Shown here in pieces: positions 1,366 to 21,967 of a DNA stretch of 24,713 nucleotides; positions within the stretch are counted from its first letter, which is position 1; each line of letters starts with the position of its first letter. Made by a program: the position numbers and the translations under genes. Source of the stretch: a virus (lineage: Duplodnaviria; Caudoviricetes); IMG/VR virus record IMGVR_UViG_3300030392_000027, positions 1 through 24,713 of that record; one strand, given 5' to 3'. The notes under the pieces are model-generated. The model had not been told where the DNA came from. It was given only the letters and a program-made list of their open reading frames with translations, and did no database searches.

Positions 1366-1450
1366 ATATATTTAATTTCTATAAAAGAGGAAGGGATAGT
1401 TTCTGGGTTCTGGGATTATTGGTACTGTATATTTTAAAAAATACAAAAAG

Positions 1451-1512
1451 AGAAAGAATAGTATAGTAACTAGTTACTAGTATCTTAGTAACTATCCTAT
1501 TCTATTCTTTCT
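1451..1512. repeat. Nested inverted repeat / palindrome
   Basis: Arms 1451-1466 and 1497-1512 are complementary at 15/16; perfect 16-bp palindrome TAGTAACTAGTTACTA at 1464-1479; inner arms TAGTTACTA (1471-1479) and TAGTAACTA (1486-1494). Confidence 0.9.
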
Positions 1513-1550
1513 TTTTATTAACTTTATTAGTATTAGTTACTGGGGATTAA

Positions 1551-1580
1551 ATTATACAAATAACAAATAAATATTGTCAA
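1551..1580 (-). promoter_or_regulatory. Consensus sigma70-type promoter pointing leftward
   Basis: Minus strand reads TTGACA-N18-TATAAT, perfect at both hexamers. Confidence 0.75.
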
Positions 1581-1609
1581 GGGAAGAATTATTACTGAAT
1601 TATTATGTA

Positions 1610-1655
1610 ATAAGAAAAAGCCTTATAAGACTGGTGATATAGTCCTATAAGGCTT
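1610..1655 (-). terminator. Intrinsic terminator on the minus strand
   Basis: 15-bp stem 1618-1632/1641-1655. Its single mismatch is A-C on plus but G-U on minus, and UUUUUCUU follows on minus. Confidence 0.75.
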
Positions 1656-1697
1656 AAGTTAAGAGAATCAATAGTTGATAGGAGGTAACTATGATTC
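1610..1697 (-). ncRNA. Putative ~88-nt small RNA with a CCUCCU (anti-SD) loop
   Basis: Extended -10 TGTGATACAAT (reverse complement of 1704-1714) predicts a start near 1697, the first base of hairpin 1697-1665 (loop ACCUCCUAUC); terminator 1655-1610 follows. Confidence 0.55.
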
Positions 1698-1731
1698 GTG
1701 GCTATTGTATCACATGGGGGCAACTAGGGGT

Positions 1732-1826
1732 GGTGGAAAGAACGCAGATTAGTCTAGAGCAACGTACTGCACGAAATGGTCAATGGTGGTGAGGCAAAGC
1801 ACCACGCTCTAGTTTCCGTTTCCACC
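1732..1826. ncRNA. Putative ~95-nt structured RNA (closing stem, internal loop, nested stems); minus strand favoured by promoter position
   Basis: GGTGGAAA 1732-1739/TTTCCACC 1819-1826; CTAGAGC 1754-1760/GCTCTAG 1806-1812; GTGGTG 1786-1791/CACCAC 1800-1805; GC-rich island in AT-rich DNA. Confidence 0.55.
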
Positions 1827-1832
1827 GAGTTT

Positions 1833-1842
1833 ATGCTAACAT
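1833..1842. promoter_or_regulatory. Candidate bidirectional extended -10 promoter
   Basis: Plus: TG-c-TAACAT (1834-1842), 7 nt before ATG 1850. Minus: TG-t-TAGCAT (1841-1833), predicting a start near 1826. Confidence 0.5.
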
Positions 1843-1849
1843 CATTTTT

Positions 1850-2251
1850 ATGGTTACGGTAAGAGGTTGTAGTAAGTGTTTAGGGGCAACTATTTCTAGT
1901 GATGACGGTAACAAATGTGTTATCTGTGGTTATACGGACTATTCAACTGCTCCAACTTATAAGATTAAACGAAATAAATATAGTGATTCACATGAACATG
2001 CGACTATTTTAATTCGTAAAAAGGGTCAGGTTTCTCTTTACCACGCCAAAACTGTTTATCTTATGACTTTTACTAATGGTTATGGTAACCAGGCGTTTAG
2101 ATATGAGATGAATTGTCCCTATGATAATTGCAAATATAGGTGTAGGACAAAACGATATTCCCATAAACGTGAATTTAAATACAAATGTAAGAATAAACAT
2201 ATATGGTATCTTATAATGAGAGATGGTGAACCCATATATTGGAGATATTAA
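1850..2251 (+). CDS. Cys-rich zinc-ribbon protein (133 aa), possible regulator
   Basis: CSKC...CVICG in the N-terminus and CPYDNC...CKNKH in the C-terminus; basic; TAATG overlap with the next gene; no SD visible. Confidence 0.7.
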   Translation: MVTVRGCSKCLGATISSDDGNKCVICGYTDYSTAPTYKIKRNKYSDSHEHATILIRKKGQVSLYHAKTVYLMTFTNGYGNQAFRYEMNCPYDNCKYRCRTKRYSHKREFKYKCKNKHIWYLIMRDGEPIYWRY

Positions 2252-2700: not shown

Positions 2701-3174
2701 ATGGCTAGTAACGCTGTCCCCGATATGCCAGGCAACAATCCTGAAGCTATTAAAGCTAGACAAGATTTATTTCTCGAAGCATTTGAAGAATTAGGTACGA
2801 TTACACACGCATGTAAGAAGACTGGTATAGGTAGAAGTACCTACAAACGCTGGAAACGAGATGATAAGTTTGATTTTGTTACCAGATTTAATGACGTTAA
2901 AGATGATTTCGCAGAAGAAATAGAACAAACTCTGTTTCAAAGAGCTAAAGACCCTAAATCTAATCCTGTTCTTTTAATATTTGCACTCAAAGGTCTACTA
3001 CCTGATAAGTATAAAGACAACGCACAGGTAAATGACGAGACTGCTAAAGATATTATGAAAGAACTTAAGACTAAATTTAGAGGTATTAAGTTTGATGAAA
3101 GCGAAAGTGTTGATATTAAAACAGCACAACAACAAGCAGAAGATATATTAAGAGGCAAAAGTGGAGAAAAATAA
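2701..3174 (+). CDS. terS: Terminase small subunit
   Basis: HTH-like FLEAFEELGTITHACKKTGIGRSTYKRWK, then a helical region and LLIFALKGLLPDKYKD; immediately upstream of terL. Confidence 0.85.
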   Translation: MASNAVPDMPGNNPEAIKARQDLFLEAFEELGTITHACKKTGIGRSTYKRWKRDDKFDFVTRFNDVKDDFAEEIEQTLFQRAKDPKSNPVLLIFALKGLLPDKYKDNAQVNDETAKDIMKELKTKFRGIKFDESESVDIKTAQQQAEDILRGKSGEK

Positions 3175-4522
3175 CAGCAACGTATCTGTTAATGAACTAG
3201 CTGATTTTATTTATGACAAAGTAGACTTTAAACCAACTCCATTACAATCGCCAATACTTAGGTCAAGAAAAAGATTTATCCTAGTAGCTGGTGGTGAACA
3301 AGCTGGTAAATCTATGGTTGCAGCTAAATATTTATTAGGTAGATTCCTGGAAACAGATGGACAAGGTCTGTTCTGGCTAGTTGCTGCCGACTACGAACGT
3401 ACCAGAGCTGAGTTTGAATACCTCGTACAAGACTTCGCTACACTAGGACTACTAAAAGAATCAACTAAAAGAGTAGACCCAGGTAGAATTGTACTCGCAG
3501 ACGGCACAAGAATAGAAACAAAGTCTGCTAAAGACCCAAGAACACTAGCTATGAGAGCACCTAATGGCATCATTGGTTGCGAAGCATCACAGCTAGACCT
3601 CGAAACTTTTCACAGATTACGTGGAAGATGTGCTCCAAAGAAAGGTTGGATGTTTTTAGCTGGTACTTTTGAAGGCTCACTTGGCTGGTATCCACAAATG
3701 TACCAGTCATGGCAACACTCAGCATCAGTAGATGAACAAGCGTTCTCATTACCCAGCTACTCTAACCAGTATTTATATCCAGGTGGTAGACAAGACCCAG
3801 AAATATTAGCACTAGAACGAGCTAGTTCTGATGATTTCTTCCTAGAAAGAATAGAAGGTATACCCAGCCCACCACAAGGTCTGGTATTCAATGAACTAAG
3901 AGCTGACATTCATGTGCGTGACGTAGAATACGAACCAGATATACCTGTACATATATGGATAGACCCTGGTTACTCAGAAGCATACGCCTGTGAAATAGTA
4001 CAAATAGTTAATGACCAAGTAAGAGTGATAGATGAAATCTATGAAAGGAATCTGGTTACAGATGAAATTATAGATATAGCACAATCAAGACCCTGGTGGA
4101 GAGATGCGCAGTTCGGAGTTATTGATATCGCAGGTTATCAACACCAAGCTATGGCTGCCCCTGCAGAAGTCTGGTTAGAACGAACAGGTATCTATTTTGA
4201 CTCACAAAAAATAAGAATTAACGAAGGAACTGAAAGATTAAAGTCGTTTTTAAAGACCGACCCAGTATCTAAAACAGAACCTATGATAGTATTTAACCCA
4301 AAGTGTGAAGGAATATTGTCAGAATTCGGTGTTAAGCCAAATCCCTTTGATGGACAAACTCGTTCCTATAGATGGAAGATGGATAGAGATGGTAATATTG
4401 TGGGACAAACACCTGAAGATAGATACAATCATGGTGTTAAAGCAGTAATTTACGGATTAATTAATCGTTATGGGTATGGCTATATTACCGATAATAAAAT
4501 TATAAAGGTTAGGCAATGGTAA
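3161..4522 (+). CDS. terL: Terminase large subunit
   Basis: PTPLQ adenine-binding motif, Walker A-like VAGGEQAGKS, Walker B-like GIIGCEA, nuclease IWIDPG and VIDEIY; lies between terS and portal; GTG start. Confidence 0.9.
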   Translation: MEKNNSNVSVNELADFIYDKVDFKPTPLQSPILRSRKRFILVAGGEQAGKSMVAAKYLLGRFLETDGQGLFWLVAADYERTRAEFEYLVQDFATLGLLKESTKRVDPGRIVLADGTRIETKSAKDPRTLAMRAPNGIIGCEASQLDLETFHRLRGRCAPKKGWMFLAGTFEGSLGWYPQMYQSWQHSASVDEQAFSLPSYSNQYLYPGGRQDPEILALERASSDDFFLERIEGIPSPPQGLVFNELRADIHVRDVEYEPDIPVHIWIDPGYSEAYACEIVQIVNDQVRVIDEIYERNLVTDEIIDIAQSRPWWRDAQFGVIDIAGYQHQAMAAPAEVWLERTGIYFDSQKIRINEGTERLKSFLKTDPVSKTEPMIVFNPKCEGILSEFGVKPNPFDGQTRSYRWKMDRDGNIVGQTPEDRYNHGVKAVIYGLINRYGYGYITDNKIIKVRQW

Positions 4523-15344: not shown

Positions 15345-16217
15345 ATGGCTCAGACATCAACAACTGGAAATTTAGAAAATGCCCAGAGAATAATACTTAG
15401 TTCAGCTAGGTATACAGAAGAACATAATGCACCTGCATTGGCACTTATAGAACAATTTAGTTTACCTAAAGGTGCTAAGACAGTTACTGTTCCTAAAGTT
15501 GGCTCAATGACAATGAGTGACCTACAAGACGGAATAGACATTATTGACGAAGAAGATATCGGAATGACAACAGTTGACCTTACAGCTAGTGAGGTTGGAG
15601 CTAAAGTTATTCTTACAGATAAACTTGTAAGACAAGCAGCTGACAATGTTTTCTCAATTATTGGAAGACAGCTTGGTGATGGAATGGCTCGAAAGAAAGA
15701 CAATGATGTCATTGCTCTTTATACAGGATTAAATAGCGCAAGTAACTTTGGGGCTGACGGTAGAAGCATGACTGCTGCTAACGTACATGCAATTATTTCT
15801 AACGCTAAAGCAAACAAGTTTGGTTCTCAGTTATATATACTTCACCACCCAAATGCTATTGCAGCTCTATCTAAAGAAGCAGCAACAACTGCAGGCAACA
15901 ACGCTGAGATTACATCAGGTTGGTCAGCAGATTTGCTATCTAACTTTTATAGTGGTCTACGACCAATTAATGGTGTACCAATTTTTGAAGATGGAAACAT
16001 TCAAAAGGATGGAAGTAATGACTCAGGGTATGGTGTTATTGCTGACAAGACTGCATTAGCAGCTCTTACTAGCGTAGAAACCAGAACTGAAAGACAAAGA
16101 GATGCTTCTCTTAGAGCTACAGAAATTGTAATGACAGCAGACTATGGTGTCTTTGAATTAGATGACACTAAAGGAGCTGCAGTATTGTTTGAAATTGGTG
16201 ACTTAGCAACTACATAA
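15345..16217 (+). CDS. Major capsid protein (HK97 fold)
   Basis: 290 aa; GAKTVTVPK, QLGDGMARKKDNDVI, ILHHP, INGVPIFE and ADYGVFELD pattern; strong AGGAGG SD; follows scaffold. Confidence 0.88.
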   Translation: MAQTSTTGNLENAQRIILSSARYTEEHNAPALALIEQFSLPKGAKTVTVPKVGSMTMSDLQDGIDIIDEEDIGMTTVDLTASEVGAKVILTDKLVRQAADNVFSIIGRQLGDGMARKKDNDVIALYTGLNSASNFGADGRSMTAANVHAIISNAKANKFGSQLYILHHPNAIAALSKEAATTAGNNAEITSGWSADLLSNFYSGLRPINGVPIFEDGNIQKDGSNDSGYGVIADKTALAALTSVETRTERQRDASLRATEIVMTADYGVFELDDTKGAAVLFEIGDLATT

Positions 16218-18058: not shown

Positions 18059-19345
18059 ATGCCTGTACAGGGAAGAACGAGAAAACAACTTAGACAGTCT
18101 ATAGGTTTTAATCTAGGGGCATTAAAAACTGGTACTGCTTATGATGCAGGTTCAACAACTACATTAATAGATACTAACCTTATCGGTGGTGATGATACTT
18201 ATAACGGTAGGTGGATTATAGTTTCTGATACTAGTGATTCTAGTAATGTTGAAACTAGGCTTGTTAGTGACTATACAGCATCAGCTTACAGGTTAACATT
18301 ACAGCAAGCATTATCTTTTGCTACGGCTGCTGGTGATACATACGAAATATATAATGAACCATATGACCCTGAGATTATTAATGATTTTATTAATCAAGCT
18401 GTTGTAGACGTAACAGGTCAGGCATATGACCCAATAGAATATCCTGATATGTCTAGTTCTCCACACACAGCTTTGTTTGGAGATGGAAGAACTTTAAGGT
18501 TTGATATTCCCAGTAACATCTCAATTATTAATCGTATTTATTATAGAAGTGCTGTTACTTCTACTATCTTACACAGTTGTAATTCTGCATTTGATGAAAC
18601 TATTGACTCAGACTTTACAGTAACAGTAGATACAGAAGATAAAAAACAAGGCACAGGTTGTAACAAGTTTGTTATTGCTGCTGGTGCTAGTGCTGGAGAC
18701 ATAGCAACTGACTCAATAGTTAGTAAAAATATTAGTAAATATGATTACTTAGAATGTTGGGTTAAAAGTACAGTTGCTACTTCTGCTGGTAACTTAAAGA
18801 TATTACTTGACGATTCTGCTTCGTGTGCGTCTCCATTAGAGACGTTATCTGTTCCAGCCTTATCAGCAGACACATGGACTTATGTACGCATCTTTTTGGC
18901 TAACCCAGAACTTGATACAGCAATTATATCTATAGGATTAGAATATGATTCTGACTTAGGTGCGTGTCAAATACGATTAGATGATATTAAAGTAGTTAAA
19001 AACGATACTGCTGTATTTCAAATATTTCCTAAACATTTATGGAAGATAGACAGAAGTGCTAGAGATTTAATTTTAAATGATGGTGCTGAATCAGAAGTTG
19101 GTTACAGTATGATAAAGCTATCAGGTGGAGACAAGCCTGCATTGCTAACTACTGATACATCTACAACTGAAATAGACGATTCATATATTATAGCTAGAGC
19201 TACAGGATTAGCGTTTGCTGCAGCATCAGGTGGTCCAAGTACAGACCCAGACGCTTTACGACAAGCAGCAGCTTTCTGGTTTGGATTAGCAGAACAAGCT
19301 AAACGTGCGTTCCCATTATTAATAACAGGTAGAGCAGTTGAATAA
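18059..19345 (+). CDS. Putative head-tail adaptor (tail tubular A-like) with inserted beta-sandwich domain(s)
   Basis: N-terminal TRKQLRQSIG, INDFINQAV, C-terminal helical YIIARATGLAF; internal jelly-roll-like ISKYDYLECWVKS..WTYVRI..IRLDDIKV; synteny. Confidence 0.6.
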   Translation: MPVQGRTRKQLRQSIGFNLGALKTGTAYDAGSTTTLIDTNLIGGDDTYNGRWIIVSDTSDSSNVETRLVSDYTASAYRLTLQQALSFATAAGDTYEIYNEPYDPEIINDFINQAVVDVTGQAYDPIEYPDMSSSPHTALFGDGRTLRFDIPSNISIINRIYYRSAVTSTILHSCNSAFDETIDSDFTVTVDTEDKKQGTGCNKFVIAAGASAGDIATDSIVSKNISKYDYLECWVKSTVATSAGNLKILLDDSASCASPLETLSVPALSADTWTYVRIFLANPELDTAIISIGLEYDSDLGACQIRLDDIKVVKNDTAVFQIFPKHLWKIDRSARDLILNDGAESEVGYSMIKLSGGDKPALLTTDTSTTEIDDSYIIARATGLAFAAASGGPSTDPDALRQAAAFWFGLAEQAKRAFPLLITGRAVE

Positions 19346-21282
19346 TGGTAAGCAAAGTTTTAGATAAAAACGAAATATACCTTAACGGTACATATTTTCC
19401 TTTAACTAGACCTGTACAAAGCACATTAGCTTCTTTGTATCCACCAAAGGTTACTATTGGGGATACAACCAGAGACTCACAAACAAGAGCATCTGTTATA
19501 TCCTGGTCTGATTGGCGTGGTGGTATAGGCGTAGAACGTATGCAAGGACCTGCAGATGCAGACAAGGCTTGGTATTCTACATTACAACTAAGATATAGAA
19601 GACATTTAGTATTACCTGCATTAGCTACAGAGACAAGAGCACAGCTATCAGATGCTACTGCTGTTAGTGGTGCTATTACTTTTATAGCTGAAAAAGGAAG
19701 TGATTTATATGTAGGGTTTGATAAAAGACCTTATGTATATTCAGAAGGTGGACAATCTCATGGAGCAGATTTTCTTACACAATTAACTAATAGTGGTAGT
19801 GCTTATAGTTTTCCAGATACGCCAACAGATTCCATAACTATTAGTATGGCAGGTACAGATTATATAGTCGTTGCTCATACAGGTGGATATAGTTATTACT
19901 CTGCTAATACCACAGTTACAGACAAAACAACTGATGCTAAATTTCTTACATCTTGGGATGACAGATTGTGGGGAATAGATTCTGGTGGTCAGCTTTGGTA
20001 CACACTTACTATTGGTGGTACACCTGTTAATGATGCGTTACTACCTGTACAAGATGGATTTGTTACAGATTTATTTGTAGGTAGAGATTCTACGGGAACC
20101 CAAATTATATATGCAGCTACTAAAGTAGGCTTGTATGCACACGATATGGCTAACGGAAGATTTGTTGAAACACAATTTCAATTACCTTTCCATGAATTTA
20201 ATGGTGTAGGGACTGTTAGATGGCGTGACGCAATATACAATCCTAGTGGTTTAGGCATATATAAATATATTAATGGTAATAACAATGCAGTCGTAACAGT
20301 AATGGGTCCAGATAGAGATGATGGATTGCCTGCAATACAACGAGGAACAATTAAAAAACTAGTAGGTACACACACAGAATTGTTAGCTGCAATAGACGCA
20401 ACTACTGCTCCAGCAGCACAAGCTAGTACAGACTGGTCTTTTCATGTTCCTGTTGGGCAAGGAAGCCGAACAGCAGTTATAGATGCTTCTACTGGACATT
20501 CATCAATCATAGGTTGGAATGATGTTGGGTGGGAAACTAAATGGTCTGCTACTACATCTGCAGCAGCTAAAGCTGTTAAGCATATGTTAGTAACTAATGC
20601 AGGTAAAGGTGACTACAGATTATGGTGGGGATTTAACGGTAAACTATGGAATCAATCTGTTCCATTTGATGTTCTTAATCCTTCACAGTTATCTAGGTTT
20701 GAGTATGATACAAGTGGTTATTTAGAAACACCTTGGTTTGATGCACAACAATCTGAAGTAGATAAGTTAGCATTACAACTAAAAGTAGAAGTACAAGATG
20801 CTTCTAGTACCGAAACTGTAGCTGTACAGTATGCTCTTGATTATTCAGAAGACTATACAAGCATGGGAACAATAACTAGTAACGGCACTACTAGTTATAC
20901 ATTTGGTTCTAACTTAGGAACTACATTTAGAGCTATAAAGTTTAAGATAACATTGGCTAGAGAAGCAGGTACAACTATAACAATTATGAAAAAATCTCCT
21001 GATGTGGTATCTCTTACTCTTGAATACAGAAAGAAATTAGCTGCTAAGTATGGTCATGCTGTAGAAGTAAACTTAAATGAAACTTACAAAGGTAAAGATG
21101 CTAAACAATTAAGAGCTGCATTGGTATCAGCTATAGAATCAAATACGTTAGTTGAATTTACATTTAGAGATGATAGTGGGGGTACACGTAACTATTACGT
21201 AGACGTAACCTCTGCAACAGGAATTGAATATACAGGACATGATGAACGAGGTTCATCAAGGATTACATTGGTAGAGCCATGA
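19345..21282 (+). CDS. Putative tail nozzle (tail tubular B / P22 gp10-like beta-propeller)
   Basis: 645 aa beta-rich; SDWRGGIG, WDDRLW, GYLETPWFD, FRAIKFKITL; follows the adaptor. Confidence 0.65.
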   Translation: MVSKVLDKNEIYLNGTYFPLTRPVQSTLASLYPPKVTIGDTTRDSQTRASVISWSDWRGGIGVERMQGPADADKAWYSTLQLRYRRHLVLPALATETRAQLSDATAVSGAITFIAEKGSDLYVGFDKRPYVYSEGGQSHGADFLTQLTNSGSAYSFPDTPTDSITISMAGTDYIVVAHTGGYSYYSANTTVTDKTTDAKFLTSWDDRLWGIDSGGQLWYTLTIGGTPVNDALLPVQDGFVTDLFVGRDSTGTQIIYAATKVGLYAHDMANGRFVETQFQLPFHEFNGVGTVRWRDAIYNPSGLGIYKYINGNNNAVVTVMGPDRDDGLPAIQRGTIKKLVGTHTELLAAIDATTAPAAQASTDWSFHVPVGQGSRTAVIDASTGHSSIIGWNDVGWETKWSATTSAAAKAVKHMLVTNAGKGDYRLWWGFNGKLWNQSVPFDVLNPSQLSRFEYDTSGYLETPWFDAQQSEVDKLALQLKVEVQDASSTETVAVQYALDYSEDYTSMGTITSNGTTSYTFGSNLGTTFRAIKFKITLAREAGTTITIMKKSPDVVSLTLEYRKKLAAKYGHAVEVNLNETYKGKDAKQLRAALVSAIESNTLVEFTFRDDSGGTRNYYVDVTSATGIEYTGHDERGSSRITLVEP

Positions 21283-21572: not shown

Positions 21573-21967
21573 TGACTACACAAAGTTCTTTAACAATACC
21601 ACCAGATAATTGGACAGGTTCTAAACCTGAATGGATGTTTTACGCATCTTTAATAGAACTAGGATACGAACCTGGTGAAGACTTTACTTACCAGTCACCG
21701 TTGATGGGTGGCAGATTAGATAAAGGTGGTTTAATAATAGACTTTATGTTTTATAATCCACCTAATTTAGCTGTTAACGTACAAGGTGTATACTATCACT
21801 ATGAATTAGGGTCAGAAACTAAAGCTAGAGATATATTTGCAAGACAGGCTTTAGCAGGACAGGGGACAACATTGATATTTGTAGACGAAGATGATTTAGA
21901 ACAAGACCCTTTAGGGGTCACAAGAGACGCTATCAACTTTAGAGATAGGTCAAGACTAGGAGGATAA
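21572..21967 (+). CDS. Vsr/DUF559-like PD-(D/E)XK-fold protein
   Basis: SKPE..L...G..F.YQ..IDF..LAVNVQGVYYH..RD..L..QG..LIFV pattern; ATG 21572 (TAATG overlap) preferred to the track start at 21548. Confidence 0.7.
   Translation: MTTQSSLTIPPDNWTGSKPEWMFYASLIELGYEPGEDFTYQSPLMGGRLDKGGLIIDFMFYNPPNLAVNVQGVYYHYELGSETKARDIFARQALAGQGTTLIFVDEDDLEQDPLGVTRDAINFRDRSRLGG

Follow-up and report, generated by a model that had tools for sequence, protein, structure and literature searches.

A putative two-gene small RNA cassette and a likely DNA signal region between the early and late arms of a tailed phage

The region separating the leftward early arm of a tailed phage from its rightward late operon appears to hold two minus-strand small RNA genes and a promoter that fires into a likely DNA signal region, an explanation that, taken as a whole, we consider on balance likely. 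Its first part is the firmer one, and it is very likely that the two units, called here units 1 and 2, are transcribed RNAs. The window (the whole stretch of DNA analysed, 24,713 nucleotides) is a tailed-phage contig, with terS at 2701-3174 and terL at 3161-4522 (PHROG matches for TerS and TerL) and the major capsid gene at 15345-16217, and the cassette lies next to the packaging genes. The anatomy of the cassette, its conservation in relatives, the covariation of unit 1 and the complementarity of unit 2 to early genes are supported directly.

TerL relatives at 50-57% identity were found in 16 cellular records, 15 of them named Dehalococcoidia or Dehalogenimonas and one Chloroflexota, which makes Dehalococcoidia the likely host. 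Several homologue contigs carry TARA names, and we take SAR202 to be the label for marine members of this host group. TerL relatives of the same identity (L185-L200) sit in many Dehalococcoidia chromosomes, as prophages or as a domesticated packaging element. Comparison by blastn with 50,697 annotated phages gave zero matches, ARAGORN called 0 tRNA genes, and a literature search of titles and abstract openings found no description of this cassette and nothing on regulation in phages of marine Dehalococcoidia. The first-pass annotation, made from the sequence, had recognised no known RNA family, and indeed the Rfam 15 covariance models returned 0 matches at gathering score in the whole window; at E up to 10, the region and nine homologue loci gave weak miRNA-like or generic hairpin matches only.

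That annotation read the region as three small RNA genes, each behind a leftward promoter-like element. The three elements are present, TGTTAGCAT at 1841-1833, TGTGATACAAT at 1714-1704 and TTGACA-N18-TATAAT at 1580-1551, and the starts predicted for units 1 and 2 (1826 and 1697) coincide with their first paired bases. It had also seen no credible minus-strand ORF; within 1435-1842 there is no ORF of at least 60 aa. Fold z-scores for units 1, 2 and 3 are -2.5, -7.1 and -3.9 on the minus strand and -1.1, -5.0 and -3.9 on the plus strand. The promoter patterns do not exceed chance: the extended -10 pattern was found 18 times against 27.7 expected, and is uninformative alone, and the perfect TTGACA-N18-TATAAT arises in 10 of 100 shuffles. 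The case therefore rests on conservation in relatives. Conservation of promoter plus fold had been set beforehand as the test, and units 1 and 2 pass it, leaving two of the three proposed genes standing and unit 3 unsupported as a small RNA.

Unit 1 (1732..1826, minus strand) is a predicted 95-nt non-coding RNA, which we assessed through its homologues, a covariance model and covariation. Homologue loci were collected by terS and terL searches and iterated nhmmer, which yielded 49 distinct unit 1 homologues. Of 49 selected loci, 44 match the covariance model, without exception on the minus strand and upstream of terL; the five loci lacking a match offer only 1.0-1.7 kb of upstream sequence and may be incomplete. 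All 42 of the 42 metagenome pattern matches also score above 65 bits with this model. Three near-complete relatives each carry one copy of unit 1, and two near-complete sister genomes have none. Unit 1 was found in 0 of 72 further terL loci (52 from distant phages, 5 close but probably incomplete, 15 from hosts) and in 0 of 5 host genomes, and a search of 151 host-class genomes, with limited candidate scoring, gave one weak match (E 0.08, 71 nt).

The first-pass annotation described unit 1 as a nested-stem unit. Covariation supports instead a fold into a probable compact double pseudoknot of six helices, one of them formed between loops. Helix P1 (1826-1819/1739-1732) closes the ends; Pa (1818-1816/1774-1772) and Pd/Pe (1771-1767/1747-1743 and 1763-1762/1753-1752) form two arms; the hairpin Pc (1805-1800/1791-1786) lies inside the first arm, and Pb, the loop-loop pseudoknot (1812-1806/1760-1754), joins the loops of both. 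The homologues share a mean identity of 60% (minimum 36%), and two-sided change is seen in 24 of the 27 pairs. In an alignment fitted to the nested helices, 94% of the cells pair, against 35-50% in slid-partner controls that ignore phylogeny. Pb is absent from the covariance model, yet it covaries, and does so again in an unfitted plain MAFFT alignment, a signal that is the same whether it pairs within or between molecules. A 12-sequence seed alignment supports P1, Pb and Pc. The cells contain 59 G-U against 11 A-C combinations, about half from one position, an excess that favours the minus strand. About a dozen junction and loop bases are near-invariant, and the conserved unpaired bases comprise AA after Pa, CUAA, and the Pc loop, which reads Y-U-G-Y-C in most homologues and U-G-Y-C in 57 of 58. 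A U tract follows P1 in only 5 of 59 homologues, so the 3′ end of unit 1 would be produced by trimming or else lie at 1612 after read-through.

The promoter element of unit 1 (1833..1842) is a palindrome, ATGnTAnCAT, that can be read as an extended -10 on either strand. On the minus strand it gives TGtTAGCAT, for unit 1; on the plus strand it gives TGcTAACAT (1834-1842), the predicted -10 of the late operon, an overlap that the first-pass annotation overlooked. The element is present in 51/51 distinct homologue promoters, for which the minus-strand pattern was the search key, while the positions required by the plus-strand promoter alone are kept in 50/51 and 48/51, and the G at +1 of unit 1 in 48/51. 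We infer that it is a bidirectional promoter, the alternative being that the palindrome is a dimeric operator. Host RNA polymerase would read the -10 both ways, making unit 1 together with the terminase operon. Bidirectional bacterial promoters have been described with overlapping -10 elements and divergent starts, a spacing of 23 bp being common and varying slightly (PMC12825309). The phage element resembles them in its predicted starts, 1826 on the minus strand and 1850 on the plus strand, which are 24 apart; unlike them, it would couple a late operon to a non-coding RNA, and in a Chloroflexota host, both starts being predicted.

The first ORF of the late operon (1850..2251, plus strand, from the ORF list) encodes 133 aa with CxxC motifs and is predicted to be leaderless. 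An ATG 7-8 nt past the plus-strand -10 opens at least 40 codons in 32 of the 51 homologues, and in 15 of the 51 no start codon stands at that distance. The ORF has no PHROG or Pfam match, and all its matches in the Atlas search scored under 0.9.

Unit 2 (1697-1612, minus strand) consists of a promoter, a hairpin with an anti-SD loop and a terminator, a layout that relatives keep while their seeds differ. Its extended -10 promoter, TGTGnTAyAAT (1704..1714), changes toward TATAAT in L002, L003, L011 and L013. The first hairpin (1664..1697) carries the unpaired anti-SD loop at 1686-1677, the predicted seed against early-gene ribosome-binding sites (RBSs), and is kept in 7 close relatives with one-sided changes only. 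The hairpin and U tract at 1612..1655 are called as an intrinsic terminator, which shows compensatory change in 4 of 13 pairs among the 7 close relatives and is predicted to end read-through from unit 1 as well. In distant relatives the sequence in second position is unrelated and the layout recurs. Of 48 distinct downstream regions, 34 have CTCC in the opening 30 nt, at +12 to +19 except for one at +25, and the motif is left unpaired in 30 of the 34; the core of the anti-SD is given as CCUCC (PMC10783764). Counting against unit 2, 14 of the 48 relatives have no anti-SD unit in second position. The anti-SD might be the mere reverse of a plus-strand RBS serving a small ORF (1691-1792, 33 aa), with a good SD and ATG at 1679-1693. 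This we regard as highly improbable, since the ATG is found in only 14 of 34 homologues, opening 11-49 aa in inconsistent frames, and the signature is one that opposite-strand early genes carry. We accordingly rejected a peptide encoded on the plus strand at 1691, the complementary RBS serving no conserved peptide.

Other elements are found in the relatives. A ~60-aa ORF with an RBS and a hydrophobic C-terminus, possibly an exclusion protein, replaces unit 2 immediately behind unit 1 in L054, L055, L057, L060 and L071 (G156 21680-21877). A GGGCUGG/CCAGCCC helix closes a further type of RNA in the cassettes of L050, L051, L076, L095, L101 and L091, in which an anti-SD often stands right after the 5′ helix. 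The second unit of L089, L090, L101 and L102 is a fourth RNA type, a 60-nt long hairpin that has a U tract and a promoter of its own and lacks an anti-SD. In the sister clade, G159 (~19000-19030) and G160 (~20490-20520) carry a leftward anti-SD hairpin before terS, with 6-nt matches only to their own genes.

Targets of unit 2 were evaluated with a 24-nt seed taken by a fixed rule, recording the longest exact match through GGAG at every predicted start. Across 17 genomes, matches of at least 9 nt were found at 37 of 171 early and at 0 of 77 late GGAG-bearing starts, counts that include near-identical genomes and use our own calls of start codons. Permutations of own against swapped genomes, with one genome per seed group, gave 1 of 5040 and 2 of 5040, and an own-genome permutation with two related seeds retained gave 1-2 of 40320. 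Natural changes in the seed point the same way. G157 and G173 (in which the fixed rule takes the second small RNA, the first having no anti-SD) differ in one seed base, and in 3 of 16 homologous early genes the RBS has changed accordingly; these genes match their own seed over 9-11 nt and the swapped seed over 4-5. Between G161 and G162, 2 of 14 homologous genes change their RBS with the seed, a 106-aa gene overlapping an AAA_25 gene and an ArdC-like metallopeptidase gene, and one pair changes the wrong way. On the other hand, the seed test fails against shuffles in 3 of the 14 genomes with at least 6 early genes and a seed (G158, 206/1000; G171, 559/1000; G164, which has 6 early genes, 133/1000), and the sister-clade hairpin, with its 6-nt matches, fails as well. 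The window holds a single early gene, whose RBS has no GGAG, and targets were therefore drawn from G162, which has an identical seed.

We think it probable that unit 2 represses early genes. Transcription, repression, its timing and the role of unit 1 are all inferred here from comparison of sequences. Unit 2 would accumulate from its own extended -10 promoter, and its loop would pair with a phage-specific signature of 9-13 nt that several early messages carry around GGAG, among them, in the closest relative, those of the AAA helicase-coupled gene and of the ArdC-like anti-restriction gene. The late messages would escape, as would the leaderless first late gene, and ribosomes would therefore shift from early to late genes. 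A role in the early/late switch had been suggested in the first-pass annotation, and for unit 2 the matches between seed and early-gene RBSs now lend that idea direct comparative support. Counted against it, extended -10 promoters should fire early, which leaves the timing of the switch unaccounted for.

Three known systems bear on this reading. The c4 (P1/P7) and sar (P22) RNAs pair through their loops with the RBS region of a phage mRNA, blocking translation (PMC12197685). Like them, unit 2 is predicted to be a small phage RNA that presents an exposed loop to RBSs with a specificity that differs between relatives. It has a predicted promoter of its own and a short, structured, non-coding body, and the seed exposed in its loop is complementary to phage starts and changes with its targets. 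As described, c4 and sar target one antirepressor message in temperate phages, whereas unit 2 matches the RBS signature of several early genes; unlike them, it has its own terminator and no Rfam match. Membership of the c4 family was rejected, as no Rfam c4 match was found and the best targets are diverse early genes. T4 RegB is an endoribonuclease that inactivates early messages at GGAG Shine-Dalgarno sites, the downstream context giving specificity (PMC3014915, PMC1702504). Unit 2 is likewise predicted to shut early messages selectively at GGAG sites; what a protein nuclease does in T4 (PMC3014915) would here fall to an RNA seed evolving together with its targets.

Covariation of seed and RBS could alternatively arise if RBS modules were repeats evolving in concert, with one copy in inverted orientation; we favour function because the seed has a fixed loop place behind a promoter and before a terminator. 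It is also conceivable, although unlikely, that unit 2 serves immunity or superinfection exclusion like c4 of P1/P7, a resident quiescent phage silencing the early genes of itself and its close kin, with the fast-changing RBS signatures marking immunity groups. The joint divergence of seeds and RBS signatures between relatives would fit such a role, as would a promoter requiring host polymerase alone, the replacement of unit 2 by the short ORF with a hydrophobic end in L054, L055, L057, L060 and L071, and the part of c4 in heteroimmunity (PMC12197685). However, no integrase or repressor was evident on inspection of the ORF lists of the near-complete relatives, and the cassette shares a promoter with the late operon.

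For unit 1, the most likely role is that of a stable trans-acting RNA that would bind a conserved host or packaging protein, because it has no terminator and no phage antisense partner and its conserved bases lie in junctions and loops; we hold this tentatively. Antisense action on phage genes was rejected, the best matches across 18 genomes being 9-17 nt long, with E of at least 0.03, and patternless. So was anticodon mimicry, the 2+3+2 loop geometry occurring in just 3 of 57 homologues, as well as a tRNA or tRNA mimic, given no cloverleaf (0 ARAGORN genes) and a failed 7-nt anticodon-loop geometry. A helicase module and a 97-aa late protein are among the protein families that occur in 5-6 of 6 genomes with unit 1 and in neither of the 2 sister genomes, but this co-occurrence is uninformative on a partner because the pattern is clade-level.

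Unit 1 might also be a new class of self-cleaving ribozyme or ligand-binding aptamer: its core is a small double pseudoknot, about a dozen bases in its junctions and loops are near-invariant, and in five relatives it forms the 5′ leader of an ORF. Nevertheless, we judge this unlikely: the window and nine homologue loci gave no Rfam ribozyme or riboswitch match at E up to 10, and a new promoter usually follows unit 1 within 40 nt, so that no target is left for regulation in cis. Twister, pistol, hatchet and HDV-like ribozymes have helix orders that can be compared as topologies; the helix order of unit 1 differs from all four, none of which gave an Rfam match, and they were rejected. The put RNA of HK022 is a processive antiterminator that acts in cis on RNA polymerase. 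Unit 1 is likewise a promoter-proximal, structured and unterminated leader of the put/EAR type, any effect on polymerase being a prediction, and it stands at the extreme 5′ end of the leftward transcript with a U tract after P1 in only 5 of 59 homologues; it might thus carry leftward transcripts through the cassette terminators into the early arm. This seems quite unlikely to us, as the early arm contains a promoter-like site of its own (529-500) and P1 joins both ends of unit 1, as in free stable RNAs. Less likely again is a packaging RNA whose molecules join through their Pb strands into rings on the prohead. Like phi29 prohead RNA (PMC5066667, PMC4201828), unit 1 is ~100 nt long, pairs its two ends and has a multiway junction along with two loops that are complementary to each other; these loops covary, and the RNA would be co-promoted with the terminase operon. 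Unlike the phi29 system, this phage has TerS and a conventional TerL, and unit 1 differs in an extra hairpin in one loop, a short closing helix and the lack of an Rfam match. Furthermore, prohead RNA is described as unique to phi29-like motors (PMC5066667), and the two near-complete sister genomes, with TerL 70% identical, have no unit 1.

The third promoter, P3 (1551..1580, minus strand), has the consensus sigma-70-type form and would fire into a repeat and pac-like region. Its spacer is 18 in close kin, 16-17 in L064/L067/L069/L095 and 7-8 in L010/L014 and the L054 type. In the early promoter region of the window (519-500, minus strand) we noted TTGACT-N8-TATAAT. Spacers of 7-8 nt between TTGACT/TATAAT-type boxes recur in L010, L014, L054, L071, L089 and L101, and a count of box spacers over 18 genomes peaks at 16-18 only.

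In unit 3 (1435..1546), AGTAAC/GTTACT repeats of either orientation lie between tracts of A and T, and at least 4 of these heptamer repeats are found in 28 of 45 relatives. The first-pass annotation saw here a long palindromic hairpin with a U-rich tail; the hairpin is there, but no terminator is called at the tail. The fold scores the same on either strand (z -3.9 each) and is lost in the closest relative, L001 (z +0.15). Of 7 close relatives, 5 keep the inverted repeat (z -1.8 to -3.2), and in distant kin it has grown into arrays of repeats. The alignment has 4 consensus pairs and 0 compensatory changes, with indels that weaken the test. We consider it likely that unit 3 is a DNA-level element, be it an operator, an origin or a terminase-binding region, and P3 may activate an origin or direct transcription into the early arm. 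It is doubtful that all three units are small RNA genes, with the strongest promoter producing a long-hairpin RNA as unit 3: the perfect promoter, the hairpin z-score, the U-rich tail and the inverted repeat kept in close relatives speak for it, and the strand-symmetric fold, the lack of covariation, the loss in L001 and the arrays in distant kin speak against it.

Adjoining unit 3, positions 1323-1390 contain a multi-part DNA signal that in minus reading comprises a T tract, AAATTAAAT, GGGTA, CAAGAC and a C tract. It is conserved in 30 of 45 relatives with at least 600 nt and, under a looser pattern, in 38 of 54 distant loci lacking unit 1; homology to close kin ends at 1319-1323. This signal, with its flanking repeat region, is a candidate pac or genome-end site. 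A 41-nt direct repeat (1100-1140 and 1203-1243, 80% identical) ends in the AGTAACT heptamer of unit 3.

Marine Caudovirales RNAs with predicted Dehalococcoidia hosts and lengths similar to those of the cassette units have been catalogued as the anonymous candidates DNAVirus_1399 (106 nt), 8626 (90 nt) and 8627 (62 nt) by Fremin et al. 2023, whose table rows for the three give no function or target (PMC10690425). Compared by length and host only, they may include units 1 or 2. The novelty of the cassette would lie in a new variant of phage antisense control and in one RNA fold outside catalogued families.

Unit 2 offers a directly testable RNA-only route by which a phage could silence a whole gene class, with the natural compensatory pairs of seed and RBS as ready-made experiments, and unit 1, as a strongly covarying double-pseudoknot RNA of 95 nt, could be assayed in vitro without the uncultured host. 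In its widest form, which is a possibility that we put forward with reserve, Dehalococcoidia (SAR202-type) phages, an abundant group, would run the early-to-late switch or sibling immunity by RNA alone, a programmable small RNA reading a phage-specific barcode in early RBSs, while unit 1, made from the back of the late promoter, would be a new class of functional RNA, whether a ribozyme, a protein decoy or a ring-forming packaging RNA in a TerS/TerL phage.
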